Assembly (NCBI RefSeq): GCF_002075285.3
Contig: NZ_CP021983.2
Span: 1,590,001 to 1,622,000 of the forward strand
Reading direction: 5' to 3'
Origin: Halomicronema hongdechloris C2206
GTDB taxonomy: Bacteria > Cyanobacteriota > Cyanobacteriia > Phormidesmidales > Phormidesmidaceae
DNA length: 32,000 bases
The notes beneath the pieces are model-generated. The model was not told the origin of the DNA and did not search any database. It saw only the letters and a program-made list of their open reading frames with translations. Numbering within the stretch: position 1 is the stretch's first letter; every line of letters begins with the position of its first letter. Made by a program: the position numbers and the translations under genes. This document shows positions 8,029 to 31,821 of this stretch, piece after piece.

Positions 8029-8604
8029 TTATGAGTGCGTAGGCCCACTGACCGGATAGGGGCTGGTCTCAGCCTGGGGGCAATGACGCTGCAGTAACAT
8101 GGGCAACTGGGCTGGAGATACCCGGCTGTGCAAGGTCTTGCCGATGCGCAGATTAGGGCCATGTTTACAGTGCTTTAGGCAACCGGTGCGCTCTAGGGCG
8201 ATGTCGCTACGCTCGGCATCTACCTGCTTGAGCGCCTGCCACAGGGCGTTGCCACCACGCTTACAGCAGCTGCCCTTACCACAGACTTGAATGCGATGGG
8301 CCTGCCGGGGCGAAACCGAGGCGGGCTCAGGGGGCAACTCCAGGGCTGTCTGAGGAGTGAGGGGAATCACCTGGATGGCTTTCAAGCTGTCTTTCTTGCT
8401 GCGCACCCACACTCGCACCGGAGCTCCTAGGGTGAGTTCCCGTGCGATCGCATAGCGTAGGGGCTTGGGCAATTTAACCGCGTAGGTGCCCTGAGGAGTC
8501 TGCAGTCGAATCCCCTTCAACTTGCCGTGATCGGAGCGAATATCGGCGACATAGGTACCCTGCAGAATCCCTTGATGCCGCAGCCTATCAGCATATTGAG
8601 TCAT
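8029..8604 (-). CDS. thioredoxin-like [2Fe-2S] ferredoxin domain protein
   Basis: The C-terminal half has the Cys pattern CGKGSCCKRGG ... TGCLKHCKHGPNL, typical of thioredoxin-like 2Fe-2S ferredoxins. The N-terminal domain is unassigned. Confidence 0.65.
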   Translation of the reverse strand: MTQYADRLRHQGILQGTYVADIRSDHGKLKGIRLQTPQGTYAVKLPKPLRYAIARELTLGAPVRVWVRSKKDSLKAIQVIPLTPQTALELPPEPASVSPRQAHRIQVCGKGSCCKRGGNALWQALKQVDAERSDIALERTGCLKHCKHGPNLRIGKTLHSRVSPAQLPMLLQRHCPQAETSPYPVSGPTHS

Positions 8605-8748
8605 AAATATAGTCCAGTGACGTCTCTCTCAAAAACCGGATATCATAGCCGCTTTGAATGTCTTTAGCATAACCAGGCCCGCCCTCTCTTGCAATCCCTT
8701 CTCATTATAAAGATTCCCGTAACCCAGCGTCCCCAACCTCCCCGTAAA

Positions 8749-9465
8749 CTAGGCTGGCGTCAGAGACTGCCAGAAAATCCCCATGGCTCGGGCTAGGGCA
8801 GCGGCTTCGCTGTACTGAAAGAAATGGCGTCCCTGGGGACATTGCCAAAGCTGATCCCCACGACCGGGATGTAGCCAATGCTGCCACCTCAAAAACTCAT
8901 GGGAGGCAATCACGCCATCGTCCTGGCTCCCACAGGCCAGTAATGGTACAGGAGAATTGCCGGGGGCCAGGTAGGGATGGCAAATGAGCGAATGAGGGGC
9001 GGGAGTACTATCTAAATCCGCCTCGAGACGGCAGACCAACTCTCGCACCATCGATCTGGCCATGGGACCAAATAAATCGTTCACCAGTTTGAGCAAGATG
9101 CGATCGCGGTGGCAGGGTAACAGGCGTCGTTGGGCATAATAGTGAGAATACCAAGTCACCATTGGGTAAGGCCCCACTCCCAGCAGCGTGAGTGAGCGGA
9201 CCCGCTCAGGATAGCGCTGGGCATAAAGGAGCCCTAAGACTCCACTCAGGCCATGGCCCGCTAAATGCACCGGCTGCGCTACAGACTTGAGATGGTCATG
9301 GAGCAGCGTCAACGGAATCTCCAAAAGGGCTGGCTCGTCGGCAGAATGATGATAATCCCATTGAGCTACCGTCCCTCGATAGGATAGCTGCCGTAGCAAC
9401 GGTCGATTCAGAGGACAGAGGCTGGGGCTCAGATTCAGCCACAGGAGATGGGGAATGGCTGGCAT
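8749..9465 (-). CDS. alpha/beta-hydrolase-fold protein (atypical nucleophile elbow)
   Basis: VHLAGHGLSGVLGLLYAQRYPERVRSLTLLGV resembles the beta5 / nucleophile elbow / helix C region of alpha/beta hydrolases. It reads GHGLSG instead of GHSxGG. Confidence 0.6.
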   Translation of the reverse strand: MPAIPHLLWLNLSPSLCPLNRPLLRQLSYRGTVAQWDYHHSADEPALLEIPLTLLHDHLKSVAQPVHLAGHGLSGVLGLLYAQRYPERVRSLTLLGVGPYPMVTWYSHYYAQRRLLPCHRDRILLKLVNDLFGPMARSMVRELVCRLEADLDSTPAPHSLICHPYLAPGNSPVPLLACGSQDDGVIASHEFLRWQHWLHPGRGDQLWQCPQGRHFFQYSEAAALARAMGIFWQSLTPA

Positions 9466-9897
9466 GGGTTAGTTCTCCAAATCACAGTCAGCTAGGGAGA
9501 TCAACGGCGAGACCGATTAATTGAAAATTATTCCTGTTAAATCCTAACCCCTAGAGTAGTATGCCGCCATCTTCTATGCAATCAATTCTCATTAGCTGGA
9601 GGTTCGCTGCGACAATACTCGCTAGGAATGTCGATAGAAAGCAGCACGTTTCTAGTTACAAAAACCAGTTTTCTGGTAACAAATAGTACGTCGATTTAAC
9701 TGTCCATACGGAAGCGTGACCCAGAGATAATTCATCTGTTCAGACAAGATAGGTTTGTGCCCCCGATTTGAATCAGTAGACGCTATGAAAGCTACTTGAG
9801 ATATCCACTAAACTTATAGAATTAACTGTTCATTTAGTCGATCCTTGGGCTTAATAGGTAAGGTGAATACTCTGACACTCCTCTAGCCATCAGGATT

Positions 9898-12800
9898 ATG
9901 GACAGCTATCCTTATCGACAGCCAACAGTCTCCTATCCCCTGTCTCCGAACCAGAAATTACTGTGGTTAGCCTACCAACTGGCCCCTGATAGCCCTGCCT
10001 ATAACATCTACACGACAGCCCTGATTAAAGGAGCCATTGATACGGCACTTTGGCAAGACAGCTGGAAATATGTTGTCAAGACCCATCCGATTCTGCGGGC
10101 AACCTATCGATGGCATCAGGCTGAACCTGAGCAGGTGATCCATGCAGCCACTTCCCCAGACCTCACATTTAAAGTCATTCATGCATCTGAACTAAGTGAG
10201 GAAGAAGTCAGGCAATATATTCTGGCAGAATCCCGAGATCCGTTTCGCCTAGAAACTGGACCAACCCTAAAAGTCTGTCTCTTTCAGCGAGCACCACAGA
10301 TACATATCCAATTAGTCACTATCCATGAAATCTCAGGGGAACTCCGCTCCCTGAGTATCCTACTCAGAAAATTTCTGCAACGTTACTCCAAGGTTCAAGG
10401 ACATGAATTATCTACTCGGGGATTCAAGCTCTCTGAAAGCTCGGCCTTCACTGAGGGGTACTTATCGCACTCAGCCACGACAATCGTTCAGGAACCCTCA
10501 GCTAAGCATTGGCAATACCCAACGTACATTAACTGGCAAGCCGAGCTACTGTCCACTGAAACAGGCATTCAACTGGGAAACTACTGGGAAAACTATTTGG
10601 CCGATTCTCCAGTCAAGTTAGAACTTCCCATTGATTATCCTCGGCCGCTTAGCCCGAGTTATCACGGTGACGTTTATCTCAACCATCTAGAAGCCACTGA
10701 AGTCACCCAGATTAAGGGGTTTAGTAAGGAACACAATGCTAGCTTATTTGTGATTTTACTGGCCAATTTCTATGCTCTGTTAAGTCGAATTTGCCAGCAA
10801 GAAAACCTATCAGTTGGTATCCCACTCATGTCGAGCTGGTTAGATGAAGAACGTTCTAACACTGTCCTTGGCATGTTGGCTAATTTAGTTCTGTGTCGGC
10901 TTAACTTAACTGGGAAACTCTCCTTTCGTGAGATGCTTGAACGAGTAGCTGCTGCCATCGACGAAGTGGCGCAGCATCGAGACTATCCCTTTCTGGACGT
11001 CGCAAACTATTTTAGACATAAGCATAAAGGCATTACCGAGTCGTTGCCAGTGCAGGTCTCATTTAGTTGGGAAGCAGATCCTTACGCTGCTATAGGGGAT
11101 GTAGCCAATAACTTGAGCATTCAGCCCTATCCTATGGGAGAACAAGGAGGGGGGGCATTTGACCTCTACCTCACCGTCATGGAAGTTGAGGATTATCTGC
11201 AGCTATGCTGGAAATATAGCACCGACGTGTTTTCCCGGGAGACGGTTGCTCGCGTTGCCCAACAATTCAAAGCCTTGCTGATGGCTGCTATCGCTGAACC
11301 AGACCGGCCCTTTACCCAACTCAGTCTCTTGTCGAAAGCAGACCAAAGTAGATTATTGACGGCTCAGAGTCAGGCTCACTCCCAACTACCACAACAATGT
11401 ATCCATCAGTTAATTGAGCGGCAAGTTGAGCGTACGCCTGACAACGTCGCCGTTGTCTTCAAGCAAGATCGGCTCACCTATGCTGAGCTGAATCAAGCGG
11501 CCAATCAACTCGCCCATTATTTACAAAGCTTAGGCATTGGCCCCGATACTCTAGTCGGCATTTTCATGCCCCGTTGCCTAGACATGATGATCGGACTGTT
11601 GGGTATTCTCAAGGCTGGAGCCGCCTATGTTCCCATTGATCCAACCTATCCCCAAGAACGCTTAGCGCACATATTTACTGACTGCCAACCATCTACCTTA
11701 CTGGTCCATCAGCAATGCCTTGTCAATGCTCCCGACACGACAGCCCATATCATTGCCTTAGACGCAGAGTGGCCCACAATTGCGAGCCACTCAATCGCCA
11801 ATCCCTTAAGCCAGGTCACTGCTCGAAACTTAGCCTATGTTATCTACACGTCTGGTTCTACAGGCAAGCCGAAGGGAGTCATGATTGAGCATCGATCCCT
11901 AGTCAACTTTGTCCAACAAGCTTGCCAAACCTATGACATTACTTCAGCGGATCGCATCCTACAGTTTTCATCCTTTAGTTTCGATGCAGCTATAGAAGAA
12001 ATTTATACATGCCTGGTCTCGGGAGGAACACTCTTTTTGCGTCCAGAAAATATGATGGACTCTATCCCGACCTTCCTCGAGACCTGTCAAGATTACGAGC
12101 TCACTGTCTTAGATTTACCCACGGCTTACTGGCACCTCTTGGTGGAGGTCTTAGTAGAACAACCCAAGCTATCGTTACCCTCAAGCTTACGGTGCATCAT
12201 TATTGGCGGAGAGCGGGCCAATCCCTACTATGTAAAACAATGGCAGCGCTATCTTGGCATATCCACTGAGCTCATCAATACCTATGGCCCCACAGAGGCG
12301 ACCGTTGTAGCCACAACCTATCAGTTGCCCCATCAGGTGCCTATGGCAACGAACGTGTTAGCCTCGACCGAGATTCCCATTGGTAAAGCCCTAGGTAATA
12401 TCGAGACCTACGTCCTGGATGAGCAGCAGCAATTGGTGCCCTTCGGCCTATCCGGTGAACTATACCTAGGCGGTATTGCCCTGGCCCGGGGATATCTTAA
12501 TGCTCCAGACCTCACCCAGAGAAGTTTTATTCTTAATCCGTTCGGCTCCAGCTCCAATGACCGATTGTATAAGACCGGCGATTTAGTCCGTTATCTCCCG
12601 GATGGGAACTTAGAGTTTTTAGGGCGTGTTGATCAACAGGTTAAAATTCGTGGATTTCGGGTTGATCCGGGAGAAATTGAGTCGGCCATTACAACCTATC
12701 CAGAGGTACGCCAAGCCCTTGTCATTGCCCAATCAGATCACTTAGGCCATCAACAATTAACCGCCTATATCGTATCTAATCTCATCCCCGATCGCATTCC

Positions 12801-14733
12801 CTATCAGACGGAGTGCTGGCTAGACTATGCTGGGAAATCGGCAAAACTAGAAACCGTTGACATCTCTTCATTAGGCATAGGCCTCTCCCAGGCTCCCCCA
12901 GAGTTGTCCCAAGGCGATTCTGTTCGAGTTCGTTTCCCTTTGCCAGGGCGAGATGATGAGCGCTGGTTCAGTGGTCAGGTGATCTGGAATCATGCTTCCC
13001 GAGTGGGTATAGCACTGCATCCGACTACTGCTGATCAAGCCCTGCTGCAAAAAAGTGCTGCTCACCTGCTGGAATCTCAGGGCATACTGCAAGCGCTACA
13101 GCGAACCGTTGCTGGAGCCCTACGCAAGTATTTAAAGCAAAAGCTGCCGGATTATATGATCCCAGCTAGTTTTATTCTGATCAATGCATTACCACTGACT
13201 CCCAACGGTAAAGTCGATAAGCGACAACTACCTCCTCCCTACAGCAGTCAGCTCAAGGTCGATGAACCAGTGCCAGCGTTCCCGCATACACCTACTGAGC
13301 AGTCACTGGCAGAGATTTGGTCTACATTGCTGGGAGTAAAGCAAGTTACGCTAGAAGACAATTTCTTTGAGCTAGGCGGCAACTCGTTATTAGCCATTCA
13401 GTTTGTCAATTGCTTAAGCGAACGGCTGCAGATAGATATTCCAGTTTGGCTCCTGCTCAAGAATCCCACCATTTCCACTTTAGCGAGTGCCATCACCGAG
13501 CAAACTGAAACGAATCATGTTGCCCCAGCAGACGTCCCATATCTGTCGGATTTCGATCTTAAGGCTGAGGCGAATCTCGATCCGAACATTCACTATCCCA
13601 ACCCCATAGACTTTGCCAGGGCGATATCTCCTGCATCCATTCTTCTGACTGGTCCGACCGGATTTGTCGGACCCTATCTGCTGTCAGAACTTCTGATGAT
13701 TACAGACGCCGATATATACTGCCTAGTTCGTCATCGTGCTGGGACTTCATCCAAGCAGCGCCTCGAAGATCACTTAAAATCCCATGGCCTTTGGCATCAG
13801 ACATATCGTCATCGCATCATTCCAGTTGTTGGCGATCTTTCTAAACCATATCTAGGCCTATCAGAACCGCAGTTTGAAGATTTAGCCCAGAGCATCGATG
13901 TTATTTACCATAATGGTGCTTGGGTGAATTTTATGTATCCTTACTCAGCCCTAAAATCAGTTAATGTTCTAGGCACACAAGAAGTGTTGCGATTAGCGGG
14001 ATACACTAAAACGAAACCAGTCCACTTCATTTCCACTCTATCTGTCTTTTCCGATGCTTATGTTGATAGGAGTCCGGTGTTAGAAACGGAGACTCCTCAA
14101 TTTGAGGAAACACTTAAAGCTGGGTATGATCAGACAAAGTGGGTTGCTGAAAATTTGGTCAAAGCAGCGCAGTCTCGAGGTCTACCCATCACCATTCATA
14201 GACTGGGGACGCTTCTCGGGAATAGTCAGACTGGCATCATTAACAAGCCAAATGATTTCTTTGTTAGTTTGGTTAAAGGTTGTCTGCAGCTCGGCAAGGC
14301 GCCCAATCTAGTCAACAATCTCAATCTCACTCCCATAGATTATGTCAGCAAAGCCGTTGTCTCCATCAGTCAAGATCCAAATCACTTGGGTCAAACCTTT
14401 CATATTACCCATCCTCAGGCTATCTCCTGGACGCAATTGATAGATTGCATCCAGGCTAATGGCTATCATTTGGAACTGTGTCCCTATCCTCTATGGCTAT
14501 CACAATTGAAAACTCAAATAGAGGCAGGTTATCCCAATGATTTAGCAACATTTTTATCTACGTTGAGTTCTGAGGATGAGCTGCCATTAGAAAAGGCGGA
14601 GTTTGATAGCCGTTTATCTAAACAAGCTTTATCTAAGCTGTCACTGGTTTGTCCCGAGATTGACAACGATCTGATCGGGAGATACTTGGGCTATCTTGTT
14701 GAAAGCGGTGGACTACAAGTCAAGCCATCTTGA
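9898..14733 (+). CDS. single-module non-ribosomal peptide synthetase, C-A(interrupted)-T-R
   Basis: 1611 aa. The C domain has LSPNQKLLWL and ILRATY. A-domain motifs are LAYVIYTSGSTGKPKGV, FDAAIEE, NTYGPTEATV, GELYLGGIALARGY, YKTGDLVRY, GRVDQQVKIRGFRVDPGEIE, LPDYMIP and PNGKVDK. The carrier domain has FFELGGNSLLA. The terminal reductase has LLTGPTGFVGPYL and YDQTK (YxxxK). Confidence 0.95.
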   Translation: MDSYPYRQPTVSYPLSPNQKLLWLAYQLAPDSPAYNIYTTALIKGAIDTALWQDSWKYVVKTHPILRATYRWHQAEPEQVIHAATSPDLTFKVIHASELSEEEVRQYILAESRDPFRLETGPTLKVCLFQRAPQIHIQLVTIHEISGELRSLSILLRKFLQRYSKVQGHELSTRGFKLSESSAFTEGYLSHSATTIVQEPSAKHWQYPTYINWQAELLSTETGIQLGNYWENYLADSPVKLELPIDYPRPLSPSYHGDVYLNHLEATEVTQIKGFSKEHNASLFVILLANFYALLSRICQQENLSVGIPLMSSWLDEERSNTVLGMLANLVLCRLNLTGKLSFREMLERVAAAIDEVAQHRDYPFLDVANYFRHKHKGITESLPVQVSFSWEADPYAAIGDVANNLSIQPYPMGEQGGGAFDLYLTVMEVEDYLQLCWKYSTDVFSRETVARVAQQFKALLMAAIAEPDRPFTQLSLLSKADQSRLLTAQSQAHSQLPQQCIHQLIERQVERTPDNVAVVFKQDRLTYAELNQAANQLAHYLQSLGIGPDTLVGIFMPRCLDMMIGLLGILKAGAAYVPIDPTYPQERLAHIFTDCQPSTLLVHQQCLVNAPDTTAHIIALDAEWPTIASHSIANPLSQVTARNLAYVIYTSGSTGKPKGVMIEHRSLVNFVQQACQTYDITSADRILQFSSFSFDAAIEEIYTCLVSGGTLFLRPENMMDSIPTFLETCQDYELTVLDLPTAYWHLLVEVLVEQPKLSLPSSLRCIIIGGERANPYYVKQWQRYLGISTELINTYGPTEATVVATTYQLPHQVPMATNVLASTEIPIGKALGNIETYVLDEQQQLVPFGLSGELYLGGIALARGYLNAPDLTQRSFILNPFGSSSNDRLYKTGDLVRYLPDGNLEFLGRVDQQVKIRGFRVDPGEIESAITTYPEVRQALVIAQSDHLGHQQLTAYIVSNLIPDRIPYQTECWLDYAGKSAKLETVDISSLGIGLSQAPPELSQGDSVRVRFPLPGRDDERWFSGQVIWNHASRVGIALHPTTADQALLQKSAAHLLESQGILQALQRTVAGALRKYLKQKLPDYMIPASFILINALPLTPNGKVDKRQLPPPYSSQLKVDEPVPAFPHTPTEQSLAEIWSTLLGVKQVTLEDNFFELGGNSLLAIQFVNCLSERLQIDIPVWLLLKNPTISTLASAITEQTETNHVAPADVPYLSDFDLKAEANLDPNIHYPNPIDFARAISPASILLTGPTGFVGPYLLSELLMITDADIYCLVRHRAGTSSKQRLEDHLKSHGLWHQTYRHRIIPVVGDLSKPYLGLSEPQFEDLAQSIDVIYHNGAWVNFMYPYSALKSVNVLGTQEVLRLAGYTKTKPVHFISTLSVFSDAYVDRSPVLETETPQFEETLKAGYDQTKWVAENLVKAAQSRGLPITIHRLGTLLGNSQTGIINKPNDFFVSLVKGCLQLGKAPNLVNNLNLTPIDYVSKAVVSISQDPNHLGQTFHITHPQAISWTQLIDCIQANGYHLELCPYPLWLSQLKTQIEAGYPNDLATFLSTLSSEDELPLEKAEFDSRLSKQALSKLSLVCPEIDNDLIGRYLGYLVESGGLQVKPS
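9931..11307 (+). other. NRPS condensation (C) domain with degenerate active-site motif
   Basis: Residues ~12-470. The position of HHxxxDG reads IHEISGE (aa 142-148, nt 10321-10341). The second His is kept, while the first His and the Asp are replaced. Confidence 0.75.
11395..13227 (+). other. NRPS adenylation (A) domain
   Basis: Residues ~500-1110 contain motifs A3-A10 as listed for the CDS. The spacing between A8 and A9 is expanded by about 105 aa. Confidence 0.9.
12787..13101 (+). other. PilZ-like insert within the A domain
   Basis: Residues ~964-1068. DISSLG matches the (D/N)xSxxG motif, followed by GDSVRVRFPLPG...FSGQVIWNHASRVGIAL. The RxxxR motif is degenerate (DRIPYQ). Confidence 0.6.
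13288..13497 (+). other. NRPS thiolation (PCP) domain
   Basis: EQSLAEIWSTLLGVKQVTLEDNFFELGGNSLLAIQ. The phosphopantetheine Ser is at aa 1163 (nt 13384-13386). Confidence 0.9.
13633..14697 (+). other. terminal thioester reductase (R, SDR-type) domain
   Basis: Has a TGxxGxxG-type NAD(P)-binding motif (LTGPTGFVG), YHNGAWVN and the catalytic GYDQTKWVAE (YxxxK). Confidence 0.85.
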
Positions 14734-20200: not shown

Positions 20201-20722
20201 TCACGAGACTCGCCCGATAGCCTGAAGTCGCCGATTGACGGCGGCAAGGTCAAACCAGTCTGGATCGAAGTCACTGCCCAGACGGTCCCAAAGCTCCAGG
20301 TAAGCAGGGTCGTGGTTATCGTCTAGCCGTTCCAGCACTTCCTCATATCCCCAGATACCACCACTGCCCTCTGGCGGGCAGGCACATTCGCCCTCTAAGC
20401 ATATAGGCGCGGGGGAGTTCGACCGGGTGTAGCTCTCTAAGATCAGTCGGTGTAACCACCCTTCTTGGGGGGCATACCAGTAGAGTAGGCGGTAGCTGCC
20501 ATGGGCCAGCACCTGCCATAGGGGCAACTGCTCATCCTGAAGATCTCCTGCCCCTGGAAGCACAAAGCAGTGGGGCTGGCTATCGCTCCAGCCCATGACG
20601 ACTTGTATCACTGAGTGTAGCTGAACCAACGAGGCCTGGGCTGGGATCTGAAACCGCCGCCAAATCGGGGGATCACTATCGACTAATTCCACCCGGAAGC
20701 GATACAGGGTATGGGACGTCAT
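20201..20722 (-). CDS. pRiA4b ORF-3-like (PF07929-type) domain protein
   Basis: The N-terminus LYRFRVELVDSDPPIWRRFQIPAQASLVQLHSVIQVVMGWSDSQPHCF is the signature beginning of this family. Its ATG directly abuts the upstream gene's stop (TAGATG). Confidence 0.7.
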   Translation of the reverse strand: MTSHTLYRFRVELVDSDPPIWRRFQIPAQASLVQLHSVIQVVMGWSDSQPHCFVLPGAGDLQDEQLPLWQVLAHGSYRLLYWYAPQEGWLHRLILESYTRSNSPAPICLEGECACPPEGSGGIWGYEEVLERLDDNHDPAYLELWDRLGSDFDPDWFDLAAVNRRLQAIGRVS

Positions 20723-23355: not shown

Positions 23356-25965
23356 GTGGGCATAGAGTCGCGATACAATCCTGCTGCTATTGAAACGAAA
23401 TGGCAGCGAGTCTGGGCCGACCAAGGACTGGATCGGGCCGACGAGGACCCGACTAAACCTAAATACTATGCTCTGTCCATGTTTCCCTATCCCTCGGGTA
23501 ACCTGCACATGGGCCACGTGCGCAACTATACCATCACCGATGTGATCAGTCGGGTGCGCCGCATGCAGGGCTGCCGAGTGCTGCATCCCATGGGGTGGGA
23601 TGCGTTTGGATTGCCGGCTGAAAATGCGGCCATTGATCGGGGGATTCCGCCTGGGCAATGGACGTATCAAAACATTGCCCAGATGAAGCAGCAGCTGAAG
23701 CACCTAGGGCTCTCCTATGATTGGAACCGGGAAGTGGCCACCTGTGCTCCTGACTATTATCGCTGGACTCAGTGGATTTTCCTGCAGTTCTATGGAGCTG
23801 GCTTAGCCTATCAACAAGAAGCCGCGGTGAATTGGGATCCTGTGGATCAGACCGTTCTAGCCAATGAGCAGGTGGATAGCGACGGCCGCTCCTGGCGGTC
23901 TGGGGCCAAGGTTGAGCGCAAACTGTTGCGTCAGTGGTTCTTGAAAATCACCGATTACGCCGAAGAGTTACTCCAAGATCTCGATAAACTCCCCGGTTGG
24001 CCAGAGCGGGTTAAAACCATGCAAGCCAATTGGATTGGCAAATCGACTGGGGCTGAGGTGATCTTTGTGGCCGACACGGGAGATGAGATATCGGTGTTTA
24101 CCACCCGCCCGGATACCCTCTGGGGGGCCACCTTCATGGTGCTCTCACCGGAACATCCCTTGCTGGCAAAGCTGACGACGCCCGCACAGGCAGAAGCCGT
24201 CAAGACTTACCAGCAGCAGGCAGCAGCCAAGAGTGATATGGATCGCCTGGCCGATGACAAGGAGAAAACCGGGGTCTGGACCGGTAGCTATGCTACTAAT
24301 CCAGTCAATGGGGAAAAGGTGCCGATTTGGATCGCTGACTATGTATTGATGGGCTACGGCACGGGAGCCATCATGGCAGTGCCGGCCCATGATCAACGCG
24401 ATTTCGAATTTGCCCGTCAGTTTGGGCTATCGGTGAAGGTAGTTGTACAGCCCGATGACCAGCCTCTGGATGGGGAGACAATGACCGCAGCCTGGCCCCA
24501 CGATGGCAGGATGGTCAATTCTGGTCCCTTGGATGGCGTTCCTGCCGGAAAAGGCGATGGAGAGAGTGTAACTACGGCTATCCAATGGTTAGAGGCGAAC
24601 GGCAAGGGGCAGGGGCAGGTCAACTATCGATTGCGAGACTGGTTGATTTCTCGTCAACGCTATTGGGGCGTGCCCATTCCCATGGTGCACTGCCCTGACT
24701 GTGGCACGGTGCCGGTGCCGGAGGAGCAGTTGCCTGTGTGCTTGCCAGAGAGTGTCGCCTTTTCTGGAAGAGGCCCTTCGCCGCTGGCTACTCTAGAAGA
24801 CTGGGTCAACGTGCCTTGTCCCACCTGTGGTGCCTTAGCCCAGCGGGAAACTGACACCATGGATACGTTTATTGATTCTTCTTGGTACTTTTTGCGCTAT
24901 GCCGATGCCCGCAACCAGGAGCGGGTCTTTGCATCGACCAAAGTCAACGACTGGCTACCCGTCGATCAATATGTAGGCGGCATCGAGCACGCCATTTTGC
25001 ACCTGCTCTACTCTCGTTTCTTTACCAAGGTCTTGCGGGATCGAGGCTTGCTCAATTTTGACGAGCCCTTCCAGCGGCTACTGACCCAGGGTATGGTGCA
25101 GGGATTAACCTACATGAACCCCAACAAGGCAGGCAAGGATAAGTGGGTGCCAGCTCACTTAGTCAAGGATCCTGATAATCCTCTCGACCCAGACACTGGA
25201 GACCCCCTGGAAAGGCTCTATGCCACCATGTCGAAATCTAAGGGCAATGGGGTAGCTCCTGGGGATGTCTTGGCCAAGTATGGAGCCGATACAGCCCGCA
25301 TGTTTATTCTCTTTAAGGCTCCCCCTGAGAAAGACTTGGAGTGGGACGATGCCGATGTGGAGGGGCAATACCGATTTCTGAATCGGGTCTGGCGGCTATT
25401 CACTGAGTTCATTGACGAGCGTGACACGGCGTCCCCTTGGCAAGTCACTGTGCCACCAGCCGCAGAGTTATCTAAACCTGAGAAAGAGTTGCGCCGCGCC
25501 ATTCACACAGCTATTAAGGAGATCAGCGCCGACATTGAAGGGGATTATCAGTTCAATACGGCTGTCTCGGAGCTGATGAAGCTTAGCAATGCCCTCAATG
25601 ATGCCCCCTGCAAAGAGTCGCCGGTGTATGCCGAGGGGATGCAGACTTTGCTGTTGTTGCTGGCTCCCTTTGCCCCCCATATTGCTGATGAACTGTGGCA
25701 TCAACTGGGTCATGACGAGTCAGTTCATCGGCAACCTTGGCCTCAGGTAGATGAGACAGCCCTGGTCGCTGATGAAATTACCCTGGTGATTCAAATCATG
25801 GGGAAAACTCGGGGCACGATTGAGGTCCCCGCCGAGTCTGATCAGGCGGCCTTAGAGCAATATGCCCGGGAATCAGAGGTAGCCCAGCGCTATCTGGATG
25901 GACAAACCGTGAAAAAGGTAATCGTGGTGCCAGGGAAGCTGGTGAATTTTGTCGTGGCTAAGTAG
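23356..25965 (+). CDS. leuS: leucine--tRNA ligase
   Basis: GTG start, [15 protein letters not shown], a HIGH-type motif ([15 protein letters not shown]), the CP1 editing region, a KMSKS motif (MSKSKGNGV) and a bacterial LeuS size of 869 aa. Confidence 0.95.
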
Positions 25966-26000
25966 CGTGGATCTTGCCATTGGCTATTTGAGGCTTTTTC

Positions 26001-26311
26001 TATGCCAGGACAGGTAACCCACCAATTGCTCTAGAGCGGCAATCCATTGCCGCTCAGCCTCATGTTCTGAATCAGCTGCAAAAATTCGTGGCCGCGTGAT
26101 TCAAAAACTCCTTCCGCCAGCGATTGAGCACACTGGCATGCAGTTTGTTGCTCCGGCAAATCTCCGCTGACGTTTTCTATCTCATCAGCACTTGCAGGAC
26201 CACTTTGGCCTTAAATTCAGCCGTATATTGTCGTCGATTTCCGCTCGTAGCTGCCCCCTTTCGTAGAACAAGGATACTGCTCTTAGCCTTGTGTCTGAAA
26301 ATCGGGGGCAT
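26001..26311 (-). pseudogene. degraded IS3-family transposase orfA (Transposase_8 / HTH_Tnp_1-type) remnant
   Basis: The minus-strand translation reads ...SGNRRQYTAEFKAKVVLQVLMR*KTSAEICRSNKLHASVLNRWRKEFLNHAATNF. There is an in-frame TAG (nt 26177-26179). A frameshift leads into SEHEAERQWIAALEQLVGYL. No orfB or inverted repeats were seen. Confidence 0.6.
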
Positions 26312-26342
26312 TTCAGCCTGAAAAGTAGGCGTTATTCAGGCG

Positions 26343-27050
26343 TTATTCAATAGAGGTGTGGAGCTGAGGTAATTCGGTAGCACTCCTGCCATCGACGAGG
26401 GTTCGAGTCATCATGGGATTCTCTTGATGGGTAAAGCCCGTGGGACTGTCGGGATGCAACACCACCACGATTAGCCCCGTGTCATCGGTGCAGAAGCGGT
26501 GCTGGTCATGGGCGGGAATGACAAATAGGGTGCCCGGTTGCAGGGGAAGGTGCTGTTGCGGAGTCGTGAGGCTACCGCCACCTGTCACCACTAATCCGAC
26601 CCGATAGCTGGGGTGGGTATGAAGGGTTTGCTCAATTCCCCCGGGTAAGTACATGCCGTGCAGGCAGGGATCCCCGCGGCAAATGGGCGGGATCAGCAGG
26701 CTGCTGGTACCGCCGTTGATATAGGCGAGACGACCGCAGCTTTCTAAAGGACCGCCCACCATAAACATCCCCTGGTAACGTAGAAGGGTGATTACCATGC
26801 CAGCGGAGGCCGCTCCGTCAATGTGACCGCTACCCGGCAGAGAAAAGTACATGCCGGGCTGCAACCGATAGTCGTCGTTTTGGGCGGCTCGATGCAGGTG
26901 AGGTTGTCCCTGATAGACGAAGCCAACGTGGGTGCCCGGGGCAAATAGCTCTAGGGAATGGTGCCACCAGGTGTGCACCTGAATTCGAGGGAACTCTTGG
27001 TTGAGCTCGATGACGGGCTGGGCGGACAGACAATACAGGCTGGAGGCCAT
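26343..27050 (-). CDS. cupin-fold protein (apparently two barrels)
   Basis: The C-terminal barrel reads GIEQTLHTHPSYRVGLVVTGGG...LQPGTLFVIPAHDQHRF (cupin motifs 1 and 2). The N-terminal half has a second beta-rich region. The gene starts 14 nt after the STAND gene stop on the same strand. Confidence 0.6.
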   Translation of the reverse strand: MASSLYCLSAQPVIELNQEFPRIQVHTWWHHSLELFAPGTHVGFVYQGQPHLHRAAQNDDYRLQPGMYFSLPGSGHIDGAASAGMVITLLRYQGMFMVGGPLESCGRLAYINGGTSSLLIPPICRGDPCLHGMYLPGGIEQTLHTHPSYRVGLVVTGGGSLTTPQQHLPLQPGTLFVIPAHDQHRFCTDDTGLIVVVLHPDSPTGFTHQENPMMTRTLVDGRSATELPQLHTSIE

Positions 27051-27064
27051 GGCGGTATCCTCGA

Positions 27065-29377
27065 CTAGGTGGACTGCAGGGGTAAAAAGAGGGTGTCTTC
27101 GAGGTGTTGACGCTGCTCCGGGGCAAGCCTACAACCGTCTCGGTTGAGGCAGTCGACTAGGAGCTGGGTGCCGTAGTAGTACTGCCTCAGGAGGGTTTTC
27201 TCTGCCGCCGTGAAGTGCCAGTGTTGCTCGATGTGATGGCGGGCCTTGGCTGCCGCTCTGGCGCTATCGGCCACATGTTTGATGGTGTCGTCGTCCTGAG
27301 TGTGGTGGTTGAGGCGCTGGAGCAGTGTTTTGAGGGTAGTGCGCTGGTCGCTGTTGAGGTCCCTACAGGTAAGGGCGATTTGGATGGCGATCAGCATTAC
27401 CGCATTGGCGGATGGGGCAGCGGTGATTTGATGGGTGGCATCGTACTGGCGGGCGGCAGCAATGCCGTCCTGTAGGGACAGACCGTCAACCATGCGAGTG
27501 AGGAAACTGGCACAGACCAGCAGGTTCGCCTGGCGATCTACCTGCAGGGCGACGGCACGGTTCTCGTCGATGTCAAAGTCGACGTCGAAGTAAAACGCTC
27601 GCACGGCTGCCGGTTTAATGTCGGCCAAGTCTAGGGCGGCGCTGCGATCGCAAATATCCTGCAGAAACTGTTGTAGCCGTTGGCAGTCGGCGAGGAGGTG
27701 ATCCACGGCTTGCTTCATGGGCAACAGCAGCAGGGCCGCATCCCGCAGCAGTTCCGTAGTCAGCAAAAACACCTCCCGCCACCGCCGCTCCCATAGATGA
27801 TTCACCAAGGACTGGCAGGTGGTGGTGAGGGACGGACTGTTGAACACGATTTCCCGGGCGGCAAAATACTCATGAAAGGTGAGGTGGGAGAAGGAATAAA
27901 TGCCCTTTGCCCGTTCGATCAACAGGCCGTGTTGGGCCTCAATGGAGCGCAGGATGGCCTCACTATCCAGGTGCAACTCGTCTGCGGCGGGATGGGTTTT
28001 AGAGAAGTGGCGGATGTAGTCGGCGATATAGTGCTCAACCATCCCTTGTTTCATGAAATAGTCTTTCTGCTGGAAGGTAATTAAGGCGATATAGCTCAAG
28101 AGATCGGCTTTGCGCTGATGGGAGAGCTGGCGATAGACTTGCTCCCGCTGGATTCCTCGCTTGGCATCCCATTTCTTTAAAAGGGCGTCAATGCCTTCGC
28201 GATATAGTTCCGAGCGGCTGCTAGGGCATTCGCCTGATTCCTCAAAGGCCAGACAGACCAGGGTCAACAATAGGGGGCTGACCGTGAGTTGCTTAATGCG
28301 AGGGCGTTGGTCTAAATGCCGGAGGAAAGTGACGGCATCGATGGGTTTATGGCGGAACCACTTGTGAGCAAAGTCAGCCACTTGGGCGTCGTCGAAGTCG
28401 GCCACTTCAACTTCGGTGAAGGGTTCAAACACATAGTCCCAGGCGGCAATACGGCAGGTCATGACGAATTGGCTGCGCCAGAATTGCTCAGAAAAGTTAC
28501 GAATTTCTCGAATCACCCGCTGATGATCTTCGCCTCTGACTTCGTCTAAGCCATCCAGAAGCACTAGCCCATGGCCACTGTGAAGAACCCGATAGAAATC
28601 GGCGCTCAGTTGCCCTTGGTCAATGGCGGCCCCGTGGGGAGCATAGGGGTATAGGTCGCGATGGCTGATGTAGTCTAGTAGGCCGGGTCGACCGCCGGCT
28701 TCGGCAAAGTCTTTGAGGGTGACGAAGATAGGCACATGGTCGGCCTCAAAGGCTCCTTCGTTGCACTGAATCGCTAGGTGCTTCAAAAAGGTGGTCTTGC
28801 CGGCCCCTGGCTTGCCTAGCAGAATCAACTTGCGGTAGGTTTGCACGGCGTCTAGGGCCGGCATTCGCTCCTCGAGGACAGGCCCTAAGCCTACCCGCTC
28901 GAAGTCCTCGCGGTCGCAGCGGGCCAACAACGCTTCGATATGCTGGTGCCGGCGACCGCTAATTTGCTCCAGAATGTTGACGCTGGTGTAGATATCGTGG
29001 ACCCCGATAGGATGCGACATGTCTAACACCCGCATGGTGCCGCAGCGCTCTCGGATGCTGGGGTAGACTTGGCGCCGTAGTTGGTTAACGATGTCATCGA
29101 CAGTGATCGCCGCAGAAGCTAGGGGTTGGGGGGAAGCACTGACCATGGACGGTGGGGACGACAGGCCGGCAATTACTTGCCAGTCCAGACCGATGCGATC
29201 GCAAATGCCCATGAACAGAACCTGAGAAATCGCTTCCCCCTTGAAAAAATTAGTCACTGGCTGACGACTACACCCCACCATGGCGGCCAACTGCTTCTGC
29301 GTCCACCCGGCCTTCGTCAAGGCCTGACTGGCCAGGTGCAGCCCTTCAGGCGAGGCAGATAGGGACGGCTTGGCCAT
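27065..29377 (-). CDS. STAND NTPase: XRE-type HTH + NACHT + C-terminal all-helical domain
   Basis: HTH GWTQKQLAAMVGCSRQPVTNFFKGE (nt ~29174-29311). Pre-NACHT motif CGTMRVLDMSHPIGVHDIYTSVNILE. Walker A LILLGKPGAGKTTFLK (nt ~28793-28816). Walker B LVLLDGLDEV. Helical tail ends ...LLRQYYYGTQLLVDCLNRDGC. The ATG at 29377 is preferred; the track start at 29398 is a TTG. Confidence 0.85.
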   Translation of the reverse strand: MAKPSLSASPEGLHLASQALTKAGWTQKQLAAMVGCSRQPVTNFFKGEAISQVLFMGICDRIGLDWQVIAGLSSPPSMVSASPQPLASAAITVDDIVNQLRRQVYPSIRERCGTMRVLDMSHPIGVHDIYTSVNILEQISGRRHQHIEALLARCDREDFERVGLGPVLEERMPALDAVQTYRKLILLGKPGAGKTTFLKHLAIQCNEGAFEADHVPIFVTLKDFAEAGGRPGLLDYISHRDLYPYAPHGAAIDQGQLSADFYRVLHSGHGLVLLDGLDEVRGEDHQRVIREIRNFSEQFWRSQFVMTCRIAAWDYVFEPFTEVEVADFDDAQVADFAHKWFRHKPIDAVTFLRHLDQRPRIKQLTVSPLLLTLVCLAFEESGECPSSRSELYREGIDALLKKWDAKRGIQREQVYRQLSHQRKADLLSYIALITFQQKDYFMKQGMVEHYIADYIRHFSKTHPAADELHLDSEAILRSIEAQHGLLIERAKGIYSFSHLTFHEYFAAREIVFNSPSLTTTCQSLVNHLWERRWREVFLLTTELLRDAALLLLPMKQAVDHLLADCQRLQQFLQDICDRSAALDLADIKPAAVRAFYFDVDFDIDENRAVALQVDRQANLLVCASFLTRMVDGLSLQDGIAAARQYDATHQITAAPSANAVMLIAIQIALTCRDLNSDQRTTLKTLLQRLNHHTQDDDTIKHVADSARAAAKARHHIEQHWHFTAAEKTLLRQYYYGTQLLVDCLNRDGCRLAPEQRQHLEDTLFLPLQST

Positions 29378-29674
29378 GGGAACCCTCCAGTAGCTCAAGG
29401 ATTCATTGTACTCACCTCAGCGCCACCTAGGCATTACTGCAGCAAATCATGGGATTAGCGGCCCTGATTCAGCCTGTGCCAGTACTTTAATTATCTTTAC
29501 TTTACTTTTACTCACTATTTAAGTAGGATCTAACCTATCAGCTTAGAGGGTGGTCATCCCAACAGCTACTGCCCGAGTGGTGCATGAAACTGCTCGCTTC
29601 AGACATACATAGGGTCACTACGGACTAACTTCTGTTGTGCGCATTGTTCACTGCAAGGATCCCTTGCTCAGCCC

Positions 29675-31099
29675 ATGCAACAACTCCTTGGCCAAACCAT
29701 ACATAATCGCTATCGGATTCAATCCTTACTGGGGCGTCAAACTGGCCGTAGGACTTTCCTGGCCACCGACTTAGCAACGCAATCGCCCGTTGTCGTCAAG
29801 CTGCTGCTGTTTAATCCCGACTTTACCTGGGAAGACTTCAAGCTGTTTGAGCGGGAGGCCAACACCCTCAAGGCCCTCGACCATGCAGCGATTCCGCAAT
29901 ACCTTGACTCCTTTGAACTCGATACGCAGTTAGGCAAAGGCTTCGCCCTAGTGCAGAGCTATATTGACGCCTCTTCCTTAGAGACGGCAATTCAGGCAGG
30001 GCGGCTGTTTACAGAAGCAGATCTGATTGAGATAGCGGGTCAAATCTTAGAGATTTTGATCTATCTGCATGGGCAAAACCCACCAGTTATCCACCGCGAT
30101 ATTAAACCCAGCAATATTCTGCTGGCCAATCGCTCTGGCCATAGCGTTGGCACTCTCTATCTGGTTGATTTTGGTTCGGTCCAGACCGCCATAAATCAAA
30201 ACAGCGGCACCATTACTATCGTTGGTAGCTATGGCTATATTCCCCTAGAACAATTTGCTGGCAAAACCACGACCGCATCAGATTTATACGGCCTGGGGAT
30301 GACGTTAATTTATCTGATAACCGGTGTTCATCCCGCTGATCTTCCCCAGATCAATGGCCAAGTTGATTTTAGCGGTGATCGGATTAGCTATAGGTTCTCA
30401 AGATGGCTAAAACAGATGACTAATCCCCATCTAGATCGACGATTTGATTCCACTACCGCAGCACTCAAGGCACTTCACGTTGACGCAGAAAGCGATGGCT
30501 GTAATTCCCACCTCAAGCCTGCCAGTAGCCAGGTTGAGCTGTATCGAGATTGCGATCGCATTGAGATAATCACCCAAAAAACACCTGTTGCAGATTCCTG
30601 CGCAGGTTGTATCGTTCTTGCATTTTTCTCCATCATACTTTCTCTATCTACAGGCTCTTTAGTGATAGGAACTTCATTGTTTCTATCGATCATTCTCATA
30701 AGTGGAATTTACGCCAGAAACCTAGTGACTACTAAAGAAGTACTATGTATCGAGAGAAATACGAAAATTAGTATATTTTATCGCAGAGGCTCAACTCAGC
30801 GGGAGCATCATTCGTCTCCATTTCAAGCAATTAATTTACTGGCTTATAATCCAGGCTATACCTTCGACCGCTACATCAATGAGCAAGGCAGAACAATTAC
30901 GGGTGGGACAGTCACCATTTCTCCGAATCTCTCTGTTTATGCTGGCAGTCTTGAATATCAAGTGGGTGGCGGGCACCTTTCTCAAGCAGAGCTGTGGTGG
31001 CTGGGACAGGAACTGAGTGACTTTCTGAATCTGGAAATGAAAATCATTTATCCCACCCCTAAAGTCCCTGCAGAGCAAACCTGTGGATGTGGCTGTTAA
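29675..31099 (+). CDS. membrane-anchored Ser/Thr protein kinase with uncharacterised C-terminal domain
   Basis: Hanks-type motifs VVVKLL (Lys42), HRDIKPSNILL, DFG and GYIPLEQ. There is a hydrophobic hairpin at aa ~308-347 (CIVLAFFSIILSLSTGSLVIGTSLFLSIILISGIY). A ~125-aa tail ends in CGCGC. Confidence 0.85.
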   Translation: MQQLLGQTIHNRYRIQSLLGRQTGRRTFLATDLATQSPVVVKLLLFNPDFTWEDFKLFEREANTLKALDHAAIPQYLDSFELDTQLGKGFALVQSYIDASSLETAIQAGRLFTEADLIEIAGQILEILIYLHGQNPPVIHRDIKPSNILLANRSGHSVGTLYLVDFGSVQTAINQNSGTITIVGSYGYIPLEQFAGKTTTASDLYGLGMTLIYLITGVHPADLPQINGQVDFSGDRISYRFSRWLKQMTNPHLDRRFDSTTAALKALHVDAESDGCNSHLKPASSQVELYRDCDRIEIITQKTPVADSCAGCIVLAFFSIILSLSTGSLVIGTSLFLSIILISGIYARNLVTTKEVLCIERNTKISIFYRRGSTQREHHSSPFQAINLLAYNPGYTFDRYINEQGRTITGGTVTISPNLSVYAGSLEYQVGGGHLSQAELWWLGQELSDFLNLEMKIIYPTPKVPAEQTCGCGC

Positions 31100-31122: not shown

Positions 31123-31821
31123 ATGACACCAGACCAAAAAGCCTTGTATGCTCGCATCTGCCGATTTGAGCTAGACGACCCATCGGCAAGCTTTCCCTTT
31201 TCTGCCAAACTCGCCTGGGAATATCAGTGGTCAGAAATCTATACCTACCGAGCCATTCAGGAATACAAGAAATTCATGTTCCTGGCAACGATCAGCGATA
31301 TAGATCTCTCGCCCTCTACTGTCGTTGATCGGGTCTGGCATCTGCATCTACTATATACCCGTTCCTACTGGGATGAGTTTTGCGGCAAGGTTTTGAATAA
31401 ACCACTCCACCATTTTCCGGGATCAGGAGGAGTAGATGAAGGTCTAAAATATTATCACCAATACTGTCGAACAGTAGACATGTATTTTAACTATTTTGGC
31501 GCGCCACCGAATGATATTTGGAATCGACCCAAGTTCAAGAGTGAAGGAACATTGTTCCAATGGGTGGATCGTCGCCGCTGCTGGATTATTTCGAAGCCAA
31601 CTATAGTATTCTGGTTTCAGAAACTGTTTGGAAAGGAGACATGCAAGCTTTGGACAAGGACTTTAGCCGTTTCGCCTAAACTTTTGGTGAAAAAACAGTC
31701 TGATCGAAATCTAGTGCCATTTGGTGATAAAGGAACCTTTTCTGAGGCTCATATCAAAGAGGCTAAGTACTCAAATGGCAGCAACAGTAATTTTATTGGA
31801 TCGGTCGCTGACTACCATTAG
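31123..31821 (+). CDS. DUF1399-like / glycine-rich-domain-protein-like protein
   Basis: The ATG at 31123 lies 23 nt after the kinase stop. FELDDPSASFPFSAKLAWEYQWS...AIQEYKKFMFL...VDRVWHLHLLYTRSYWDEFC...LHHFPGSGG matches the conserved module (WHxHxL...Y) that I associate with DUF1399 and the N-terminus of TIGR04222 proteins. The C-terminal third is unassigned. Confidence 0.6.
   Translation: MTPDQKALYARICRFELDDPSASFPFSAKLAWEYQWSEIYTYRAIQEYKKFMFLATISDIDLSPSTVVDRVWHLHLLYTRSYWDEFCGKVLNKPLHHFPGSGGVDEGLKYYHQYCRTVDMYFNYFGAPPNDIWNRPKFKSEGTLFQWVDRRRCWIISKPTIVFWFQKLFGKETCKLWTRTLAVSPKLLVKKQSDRNLVPFGDKGTFSEAHIKEAKYSNGSNSNFIGSVADYH

Follow-up and report, generated by a model that had tools for sequence, protein, structure and literature searches.

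What does an NLR-type switch do in a bacterium when its N-terminal domain is predicted to bind DNA and its partner in the operon is a cupin? The question is raised by a locus of the cyanobacterium Halomicronema hongdechloris C2206, within a stretch of 32,000 nucleotides (contig NZ_CP021983.2, positions 1,590,001 to 1,622,000) that is called the window below and whose own numbering is used for all coordinates. There a gene for a nucleoside triphosphatase (NTPase) of the STAND class, with the domain order helix-turn-helix (HTH), NACHT, NCH2 (27065..29377, minus strand), is followed on the same strand by a cupin gene, after a spacer of 14 nt (27051..27064) in which no terminator-like site was found on the minus strand. 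An earlier note on this DNA had left two readings side by side, an NTP-switched transcription factor and a two-gene defence system. The first has gained support from an oriented, phased element upstream of the gene and from repeat arrays across the family; the second has gained none. We put at about 0.5 the probability that the protein is a STAND transcription factor of the NACHT clade that follows the logic of MalT and AfsR, autoregulates its operon, and receives an input involving the partner metalloenzyme.

The open reading frames, their common strand and the 14-nt gap are as the earlier note gave them. The NACHT frame can be extended to a TTG codon at 29398 (27065..29398, 777 aa), and the note had preferred the ATG at 29377. 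Comparison of orthologues identifies the ATG as the true start, because all of them begin with MAKPSL or a close variant: MAKPSL, MAKPTL or MARPSL is conserved in all 25 orthologous loci examined and in a 29-sequence alignment. A GGAGG lies 6 nt 5′ of this codon. Translated from there, the protein has 770 aa and matches P0001, annotated in H. hongdechloris as a "putative NTPase NACHT family protein", at 100% identity.

By profile and fold, the N-terminal domain (aa 10–69; 29171..29350, minus strand) is classed as an HTH of the XRE/Cro-C1 type, with predicted DNA binding. In the full protein the Pfam model HTH_3 matches aa 25–69 (777-aa numbering) at 21.5 bits, slightly below its gathering threshold (GA) of 23; the isolated 72-aa N terminus exceeds that threshold with 26.4 bits. 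Among 17 orthologues HTH_3 was matched in 8 and HTH_26 in 10, most of them matching HTH_3, HTH_26 or HTH_31. A search of the PDB with the N-terminal profile finds the XRE-family regulator 3tyr (E = 9.5e-4) and HipB, and AlphaFold2 builds residues 10–69 as a five-helix bundle with a predicted local distance difference test score (pLDDT) of about 88–92. The recognition helix reads SRQPVTNFF. Profile and structure searches thus agree with the earlier assignment of an HTH, and what was overstated was its unusualness in the place of an enzymatic effector, for HTH "adaptor" effectors have already been listed by Kibby et al. (bioRxiv 10.1101/2022.07.19.500537).

The ATPase motifs that follow are intact and under selection. 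All the sequence landmarks named in the earlier note are present and conserved, beginning with the pre-NACHT motif ERCGTMRVLDM...IYTSVNILE (aa 110–137; 28967..29050, minus strand), which is shared by the cupin-linked clade described below and its paralogs. Within its CGTMRVLDM...IYTSVNILE part (residues 112–137, 770-aa numbering), C112, L118, D119, P123, Y130, V133, N134, L136 and E137 show 90% conservation or more in both groups; AlphaFold2 confidence is low in this region (below 50 for residues 114–133). The NACHT P-loop core occupies 28349..28831 on the minus strand and is matched by Pfam NACHT at aa 190–350 of the 777-aa form (55.8 bits; GA 26.7). In 770-aa numbering its Walker A motif GKPGAGKT spans residues 188–195 (28793–28816), with the lysine called K201 in the 777-aa form becoming K194, and the Walker B motif LLDGLDEV spans residues 273–280 (28538–28561). 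Residues G188–T196, D275, D278 and E279 are invariant in the 29-sequence alignment and at least 90% conserved across the whole family, and a sensor arginine is invariant alongside the two Walker motifs. The sequence LLLDGLDEV carries the D[GAS]hDE signature (D275-G-L-D278-E279) and thus places the protein in the NACHT clade. The AlphaFold2 model of the whole protein (pLDDT 79.5) finds NLRC4, NLRP3 and NOD2 as its best Foldseek matches (E about 1e-10), through the NACHT module of nucleotide-binding domain (NBD), helical domain and winged-helix domain.

The last 250 residues (aa 521–770; 27068..27817, minus strand), the presumptive sensor region, are entirely helical according to DSSP on the AlphaFold2 model. 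The earlier description of an all-helical C terminus therefore holds, and its description as an uncharacterised replacement of the usual repeats does not, since the final 80 or so residues (27080–27328) are the Pfam domain NCH2 (PF22727, "NACHT C-terminal helical domain 2"; residues 691–773 in 777-aa numbering, 61.4 bits, GA 27). NCH2 is present in essentially all listed homologues; literature searches on NCH2 yielded nothing relevant.

Is the cupin a regular partner of such proteins? The cyanobacterial HTH–NACHT–NCH2 family is large, with more than 5,000 matches, of which the top 120 are near full length at 47–100% identity. Scanning genomes with the NACHT alignment as seed recovered 80 loci. 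A cupin gene lies directly downstream only where the NACHT protein shows 61–66% identity, and in one further locus at 45%; about 70 paralogous NACHT genes (34–53% identity) have no adjoining cupin. A neighbor shared by some 60 of these paralogous genes was sought and none was found. In a neighbor-joining tree of 90 proteins the cupin-linked genes all fall in one clade, where 29 of 30 loci, and the window copy, have the cupin, and none of the 60 sequences outside it does; among the 58 paralogs of the upstream-region analyses the count is likewise zero. Many loci in this tree were fetched by way of the cupin; the unbiased figure is that of the NACHT-seeded loci, in which the cupin is adjacent in 12 of 13 clade members (L001–L005, L007 and six further look-ups), L068 being the one without. 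The linkage is thus a property of a single orthogroup and not of the whole family, a limit that the earlier note had missed together with the frequent four-gene neighborhood that includes a divergent kinase.

Within the orthogroup several observations link the two genes. A scan seeded with the cupin gave more than 20 loci in which a NACHT gene immediately precedes the cupin gene on its strand, at gaps of 11–160 nt, and in five loci (L165, L167, L172, L174 and L005) the stop and start codons of the two genes overlap. One convergent and two divergent loci were also recovered, which indicates that the linkage survives rearrangement; the cupin is thus conserved beside its homologous NACHT genes in three orientations. 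Pairwise distances among the NACHT proteins correlate with those among the cupins (Mantel r = 0.53, reached by none of 2000 permutations). Each recovered clade locus comes from a different genome, and the architecture is fixed across many genera at 45–68% full-length identity. One of these loci, L003 (CALRKB020000042.1), has both the gene pair and the upstream element on a contig labelled "MAG: Rhizobium sp. Q54" that is probably mis-binned. In L068 (Nostoc sp. CHAB 5715) the position of the cupin is taken, about 105 nt downstream on the same strand, by a gene (8583–9665) for a 360-aa Haem_oxygenas_2 protein annotated as "iron-containing redox enzyme". This arrangement suggests that the partner metalloenzyme was replaced non-orthologously, one oxygenase-type protein for another.

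An indication of what the HTH may do comes from the DNA in front of the operon. Between 121 and 155 nt upstream of the ATG (29498..29532, minus strand) lies a bipartite element, TAgATCCTA-N16-GTAAAGTA, whose consensus across the clade is TAAATCCTA-N16-GTCAAGTA and which is a candidate operator. It is enclosed by an array of five to six boxes of the (T)GAGTAAA type, phased at 11 nt (29479..29543, minus strand), that was recognized from TAAA autocorrelation and the alignment consensus; the boxes of the window region include TAGATCCTA and GTAAAGTA. The general layout is TGAgTAAATCCTAy, followed exactly 25 nt downstream by AAAGTCAAGTAAA. Ten-mers such as TAAATCCTAA occur in 16 of 26 clade upstream regions of 300 nt, against a maximum of 10 in shuffled sequence. 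Counted with up to one mismatch in 7.8 kb of clade upstream DNA, TAAATCCTA is found 27 times in the forward direction and once in reverse. The forward density is 3.46/kb, compared with 0.19/kb in the remainder of the same loci and 0.06/kb upstream of paralogs, where GC content is the same.

The element also appears where it was not first sought. In six of six new, non-redundant hold-out loci (PCC 7335, Thainema, Nodosilinea FACHB-131, Egbenema, Leptolyngbya AN02str and a JGI contig) TAAATCCTA is present and always in forward orientation. The composite pattern TAAATCCTA-N(14-18)-GTCAA[GC]TA, searched on both strands of 1.78 Mb, has 24 matches, and 23 of them stand immediately in front of a cupin-linked NACHT gene and share its orientation; the spacer is exactly 16 nt in all 24, despite the latitude of the pattern. 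Distances between TAAA tetramers in the clade upstream regions peak at 11, 22 and 33 nt (19, 13 and 10 pairs), and the pairs summed over 11, 22, 33 and 44 nt number 46, where shuffling gives a mean of 2.6 and a maximum of 9. The orientation of the element relative to the NACHT gene is constant whether the divergent neighbor is a kinase, a binding protein or neither. In the window the 11-nt phasing is degenerate and visible only by comparative analysis; Tandem Repeats Finder (TRF), run on the window array alone, reports only a weak 5-nt period. A scan of 25900–29800 with the sigma-70 consensus found no promoter-like site. An RNA explanation of the element was considered and rejected: it has no Rfam match, no consensus structure and zero predicted pairs.

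Phased repeats are not confined to the cupin-linked clade. Self-similarity of 5-mers at a shift of 11 nt amounts to 9.9/kb in clade upstream regions and 6.5/kb upstream of paralogs (a set of 58 sequences in all upstream-region analyses), as against 1.4/kb in controls, which were 254 intergenic regions of the same loci (GC 0.40). TRF finds arrays of period 11, 22 or 33 in 7 of 26 clade, 13 of 58 paralog and 9 of 254 control regions, so that the family as a whole (20/84) differs from the controls (9/254) with a Fisher p of 1.8e-7; the commonest tandem period in control intergenic regions of L001–L080 is 7 nt (34 of the 81 regions with a repeat). The paralog arrays include CTTAGAGACAA, with 3.7 copies at a TRF period of 11, on a 39-kb plasmid of Tolypothrix sp. 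PCC 7712 (L163, 6905–6945), as well as ATGTCTGACTT (3.4 copies), TGACTTGTGTA (2.9 copies) and GTCCAAGTTTT (3.2 copies). Repeat sequences are common within sub-clades and different between them, and they track the recognition helix of the HTH. A TGAST core as the box of the whole family is partly supported, by phased pairs in 8 of the 58 paralog regions.

HTH–NACHT paralogs (36–50% identity) reside on many cyanobacterial plasmids (54 records), including small ones of 29–61 kb, where they adjoin genes for ParA and tyrosine recombinases. Of two such plasmid loci, L163 has the 11-nt array just mentioned upstream, and L164 a 13-nt repeat only. An array like that of L163 could represent iteron-like sites and not plain operators.

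What distinguishes the cupin-linked proteins from their paralogs lies mainly at the other end of the chain. Identity to the window protein is 0.62 within the clade and 0.37 for paralogs in the HTH, 0.61 and 0.51 in the NBD, and 0.52–0.55 and 0.30–0.32 in the C-terminal regions. When clade-specific positions are defined as at least 90% conserved in the clade and at most 15% in paralogs, 26 of the 28 such positions fall in residues 542–726 of the C-terminal helical region. They include an acidic motif, D598-x-x-F601-x-I603-D604, a second motif, N618-x-LVC-x-SF-x-x-R628, an insertion at 651–657, and, within NCH2, A703, D704, A706, A710, K711 and E726. This distribution is what the STAND model would lead one to expect were the C-terminal region to serve as the input (sensor) domain and to set the cupin-linked proteins apart.

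The partner gene, XM38_015200 (26343..27050, minus strand), encodes 235 aa and has its own Shine-Dalgarno sequence, GAGGA. Pfam Cupin_2 matches the protein at 40.1 bits, and the AlphaFold2 model is a compact bicupin (pLDDT 92) for which Foldseek finds MncA, 1sfn/1sef, and the gentisate/salicylate and quercetin dioxygenases at TM scores of 0.5–0.64. Six residues are invariant in 33 cupin sequences: H144, H146, H184, H199, Q141 and C129. The HxH...H triad H144/H146/H184 is confined to the C-terminal barrel (26478–26651). By its modelled fold and its histidine triad the protein would be a metal-binding bicupin. Sequence and fold searches do not narrow down a specific activity, the matches being to cupins and bicupins in general (BacB, quercetinase, gentisate/salicylate dioxygenases, MncA).

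Outside the cyanobacteria, homologues of the cupin at 41–52% identity, mostly on high-GC contigs, have no NACHT gene beside them. Their neighbors are asparagine-synthase-like, nonribosomal peptide synthetase (NRPS), ATP-grasp and NeuB genes, or genes for phosphoadenosine phosphosulfate reductase (PAPS-reductase)/DUF3440 proteins, and on a plasmid of Burkholderia sp. JSH-S8 (L161) the cupin lies beside an aminoacyl-tRNA-synthetase-like gene and one for GTP cyclohydrolase II. Such small-molecule biosynthetic settings argue that the cupin is an enzyme. Some metagenome cupins, among loci L107–L160, also adjoin DUF3102 genes. Neither the NACHT gene nor the cupin gene was found in phages, and the cupin-linked NACHT form was not found on cyanobacterial plasmids.

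On its other side the NACHT gene faces a divergent gene for a Hanks-type Ser/Thr kinase with transmembrane segments and a conserved C-terminal domain (29675..31099, plus strand; Pkinase 102 bits), followed by a UCP032817-like gene (31123..31821, plus strand) whose product is 65% identical to that of a Thainema gene annotated PF27765. A full-length orthologue of the kinase gene is transcribed away from the NACHT gene in Thainema (61% identity), PCC 7335 (43%), L005, L104, L106, L116 and L172. The kinase and the UCP032817-like gene occur together in the window arrangement in several genera (Thainema, PCC 7335, L172 and L005; listed by locus, L165, L167, L172 and L005); in L104, L106 and L116 the kinase stands without its companion, and in L004 and L102 there are kinase-domain matches upstream from which the C-terminal part is absent. 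The C-terminal domain of the kinase ends in a Cys-rich tail (CGCGC), and the UCP032817-like protein has a VWHLHLLYT motif. In six other loci (L002, L084, L097, L170, L171 and L174) the divergent neighbor is an ANF-receptor/Peripla_BP_6 binding protein, and in L099 and L103/L173 it is a fusion of CHAT and binding-protein domains, beside the cupin. The NACHT–cupin pair is thus often found next to membrane or periplasm-facing sensor proteins.

The presence of an HTH, a STAND ATPase and a helical sensor in one protein, together with phased boxes upstream and a kinase as neighbor, matches the logic of AfsR and MalT and leads us to favor an ATP-switched, autoregulating transcription factor. In such a scheme the ADP-bound monomer would be kept off by the C-terminal helical, NCH-type sensor region. 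Inhibition would be relieved by an input, which could be a small molecule that the co-translated three-histidine bicupin produces or uses up, or the state of the bicupin itself. ATP binding would then drive oligomerization, and the arrayed XRE-type HTHs at the N termini would engage the direct boxes phased at 11 bp upstream of their own operon (TGAGTAAATCCTA ... GTCAAGTAAA). The outcome may be control of NACHT and cupin transcription, perhaps extending to the divergent gene for the kinase or the binding protein; by analogy with AfsK and AfsR, the kinase may feed into the switch. The scheme can be put in a bolder and more general form, which we offer tentatively and with the odds against it: the protein would be an NLR-related transcription factor that polymerizes on 11-bp-phased repeats in response to its sensor, which would read a partner metalloenzyme of the oxygenase type (the bicupin, or in one lineage a heme-oxygenase-like iron enzyme) by its state or its product, and each paralog would have a matched array of its own.

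Several considerations weigh against a regulatory role. The loci are phylogenetically related, so that a count of them does not represent independent events. Discovery of the motif and the first count of it drew on one set of loci, a circularity that the hold-out set and the specificity scan reduce. The proposed binding of the HTH to the element is drawn from their co-occurrence, and the cupin has generic matches only in sequence and fold searches. Autoregulation by itself would not prove that transcription is the output, given that defence operons are also autoregulated through HTH proteins. One paralog sub-clade, of the TRQPIWKFF type, shows no arrays, and the period-11 pattern is therefore not universal. 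Finally, the general view of cyanobacterial NACHT families is that they are conflict systems.

It is to this last view that the chief alternative belongs. The locus might be of the bNACHT type and serve in anti-phage defence or conflict: the C-terminal helices would sense an invader or a guarded host protein, the oligomer would act through an HTH "adaptor" transcriptional response or through the cupin as an effector enzyme (one that depletes or modifies a metabolite, for instance), and the array would only repress a toxic operon. Bacterial NACHTs do protect against phage, and DNA-binding "adaptor" effectors have been predicted among them (Kibby et al., bioRxiv 10.1101/2022.07.19.500537). The paralogs are numerous in each genome and common on plasmids, CHAT-domain genes lie near the L165, L172 and L173 loci, an insertion sequence (IS) relic adjoins the window locus, and there are weak domain-level matches to the EruA and PDC-S60 models. 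These matches, however, are slight. A PADLOC search, which the earlier note had proposed for both proteins, gave nothing significant: the best PADLOC-DB v2 match of the NACHT protein is PDC-S60 (E = 0.0012, 15 bits) and the cupin has none, while the NCBIfam models EruA and DS8 are matched at 55 bits against a cut-off of 1000 and at 18 bits against 790. A PD-T4-6 match of the divergent kinase (29675–31099, 171 bits) was rejected as evidence of defence, since these models score any Hanks-type kinase highly, unrelated cyanobacterial kinases at L042 (1792–3285) and L078 (14767–16008) reaching 302 and 223 bits. Moreover, the window is not a defence island, and an orthogroup of fixed architecture at 45–68% identity across genera is unlike the variability of an arms race. 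The failure to find either gene in phages, or the cupin-linked form on cyanobacterial plasmids, and the occurrence of cupin homologues in small-molecule biosynthetic clusters and not in toxin contexts, point the same way. On balance we regard a defence function as less likely than a regulatory one.

A different possibility is that the two genes are functionally independent, the cupin being an ordinary metabolic enzyme that shares a transcript and the element being a promoter or the site of some other regulator. NACHT-less cupin homologues in other bacteria fit this idea, as does the resemblance of GTCAAG/TTGTCA to a −35 box, and the pairing of HTH and element is itself conjectural. Yet independence is improbable in view of a linkage kept by 12 of the 13 seeded loci and across three gene orientations, the stop/start overlaps in several species, the significant Mantel correlation, and an element whose orientation is tied to the NACHT gene regardless of the divergent neighbor; nor would it account for paralogs with different HTH helices having different period-11 arrays. 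The plasmid-borne paralogs, for their part, bring to mind an iteron-binding ATPase of DNA maintenance, akin to a replication or partition initiator, from which the cupin-linked copy on the chromosome would have been derived by domestication. Paralogs do sit beside ParA and recombinase genes on many small (29–61 kb) plasmids, with tandem 11-nt direct repeats just upstream in the case of L163, STAND NTPases belong to the Orc/Cdc6 lineage, and ORC/Cdc6 proteins are among the secondary Foldseek matches. But the window copy is chromosomal and flanked by leuS and ordinary genes, the repeats are short (three to six units of 11 nt) and lie at a promoter-like distance from the start codon, and we know of no precedent for a NACHT replication initiator, so that this last proposal seems very improbable.

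The remainder of the window is ordinary, with genes for an NRPS, a hybrid histidine kinase, ChaN, a pentapeptide protein, an LCP protein, GGACT and LeuRS. Immediately downstream of the cupin gene lies the IS3-family relic noticed earlier (about 25990..26290, minus strand), an OrfA remnant identified from its translation by HTH_Tnp_1 at 36.1 bits and interrupted by in-frame stops; it is not part of the NACHT–cupin system. The NRPS (9898–14733, plus strand; 1611 aa) combines Condensation, AMP-binding and PP-binding domains with a terminal reductase and has a PilZ domain (aa 966–1050) between the C-terminal subdomain of the adenylation unit and the carrier domain; it may be responsive to cyclic di-GMP. 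A pRiA4b ORF-3-like protein is encoded at 20201–20722 (minus strand), and another at 12169–12765 of L161, near the Burkholderia cupin island between IS elements, a co-occurrence that is probably coincidence.

The ingredients of the preferred reading, an ATP-switched NACHT transcription factor, are already known: NACHT and NCH2 domains, HTHs on bacterial NACHTs, and STAND transcription factors. In the literature searched there is no mention of a NACHT–bicupin operon, of its heme-oxygenase-like substitution, of a bipartite element phased at 11 bp or of period-11 arrays across a NACHT family. To our knowledge current work on bacterial NACHT and NLR-like proteins deals almost exclusively with their role as sensors of phage, whose activation ends in death or arrest of the cell, and STAND transcription factors come only from other STAND clades (MalT, AfsR/LAL). 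If the proposal is correct, the NLR-type switch is also used for ordinary gene regulation in bacteria; in its bolder form, cyanobacteria would possess a previously unrecognized family of NLR-type gene regulators, possibly including iteron-like DNA binders on plasmids. The locus would offer a simple, testable system in which one protein, one DNA element of about 55 bp and one enzyme could reveal how NACHT oligomerization is coupled to an output. The paralog arrays make up a ready-made set of protein–DNA specificity pairs, and orthologues in Synechococcus sp. PCC 7335 and other named cyanobacterial isolates provide possible experimental hosts.

Transcriptional output from the NACHT clade has a vertebrate parallel in CIITA and NLRC5. 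These are co-activators with leucine-rich-repeat sensors and have no sequence-specific DNA-binding domain such as is predicted for the protein described here; no orthology is implied. The prototype of a STAND transcription factor is MalT, the activator of the E. coli maltose regulon, in which oligomerization depends on ATP and ligand, the promoter boxes are repeated, and partner enzymes modulate activity. A STAND switch with an output at promoter boxes is just what is proposed for the cyanobacterial protein, and Foldseek gives a weak match to the MalT complex 8bob. MalT, however, has its HTH, of the LuxR type, at the C terminus and an ATPase of the MalT clade, whereas here the HTH is N-terminal and the ATPase is a NACHT.

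Close in domain organization are the bNACHT proteins of Kibby et al. (bioRxiv 10.1101/2022.07.19.500537), who defined the D[GAS]hDE signature, listed architectures with HTH "adaptor" and NCH domains, and noted that cyanobacteria have the most paralogs. The signature and the tripartite plan of N-terminal output, NACHT and C-terminal sensor are shared with the protein of the window. No tested bNACHT, on the other hand, has this architecture or a cupin partner, and the word "cupin" is absent from their text; the present orthogroup differs in being conserved, in having no PADLOC match, and in possessing a cis element that points to DNA binding at its own promoter.

A further functional model is offered by AfsR and the related large SARP and SARP-LAL regulators of Streptomyces. 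Activators of the SARP/AfsR type recognize direct repeats at spacings of 11 or 22 bp, and Ser/Thr kinases phosphorylate AfsR (PMC10936776). The correspondence does not extend to the individual modules, for the cyanobacterial protein, known so far from sequence alone, has a NACHT in place of an NB-ARC/AP-ATPase, an XRE-type HTH in place of the OmpR-type SARP domain, NCH-type helices in place of tetratricopeptide repeats, and a bicupin as partner. What the two have in common is the order of DNA-binding domain, STAND ATPase and helical sensor, along with direct boxes phased at 11 nt and, at the cyanobacterial locus, a recurrent divergent Ser/Thr kinase.

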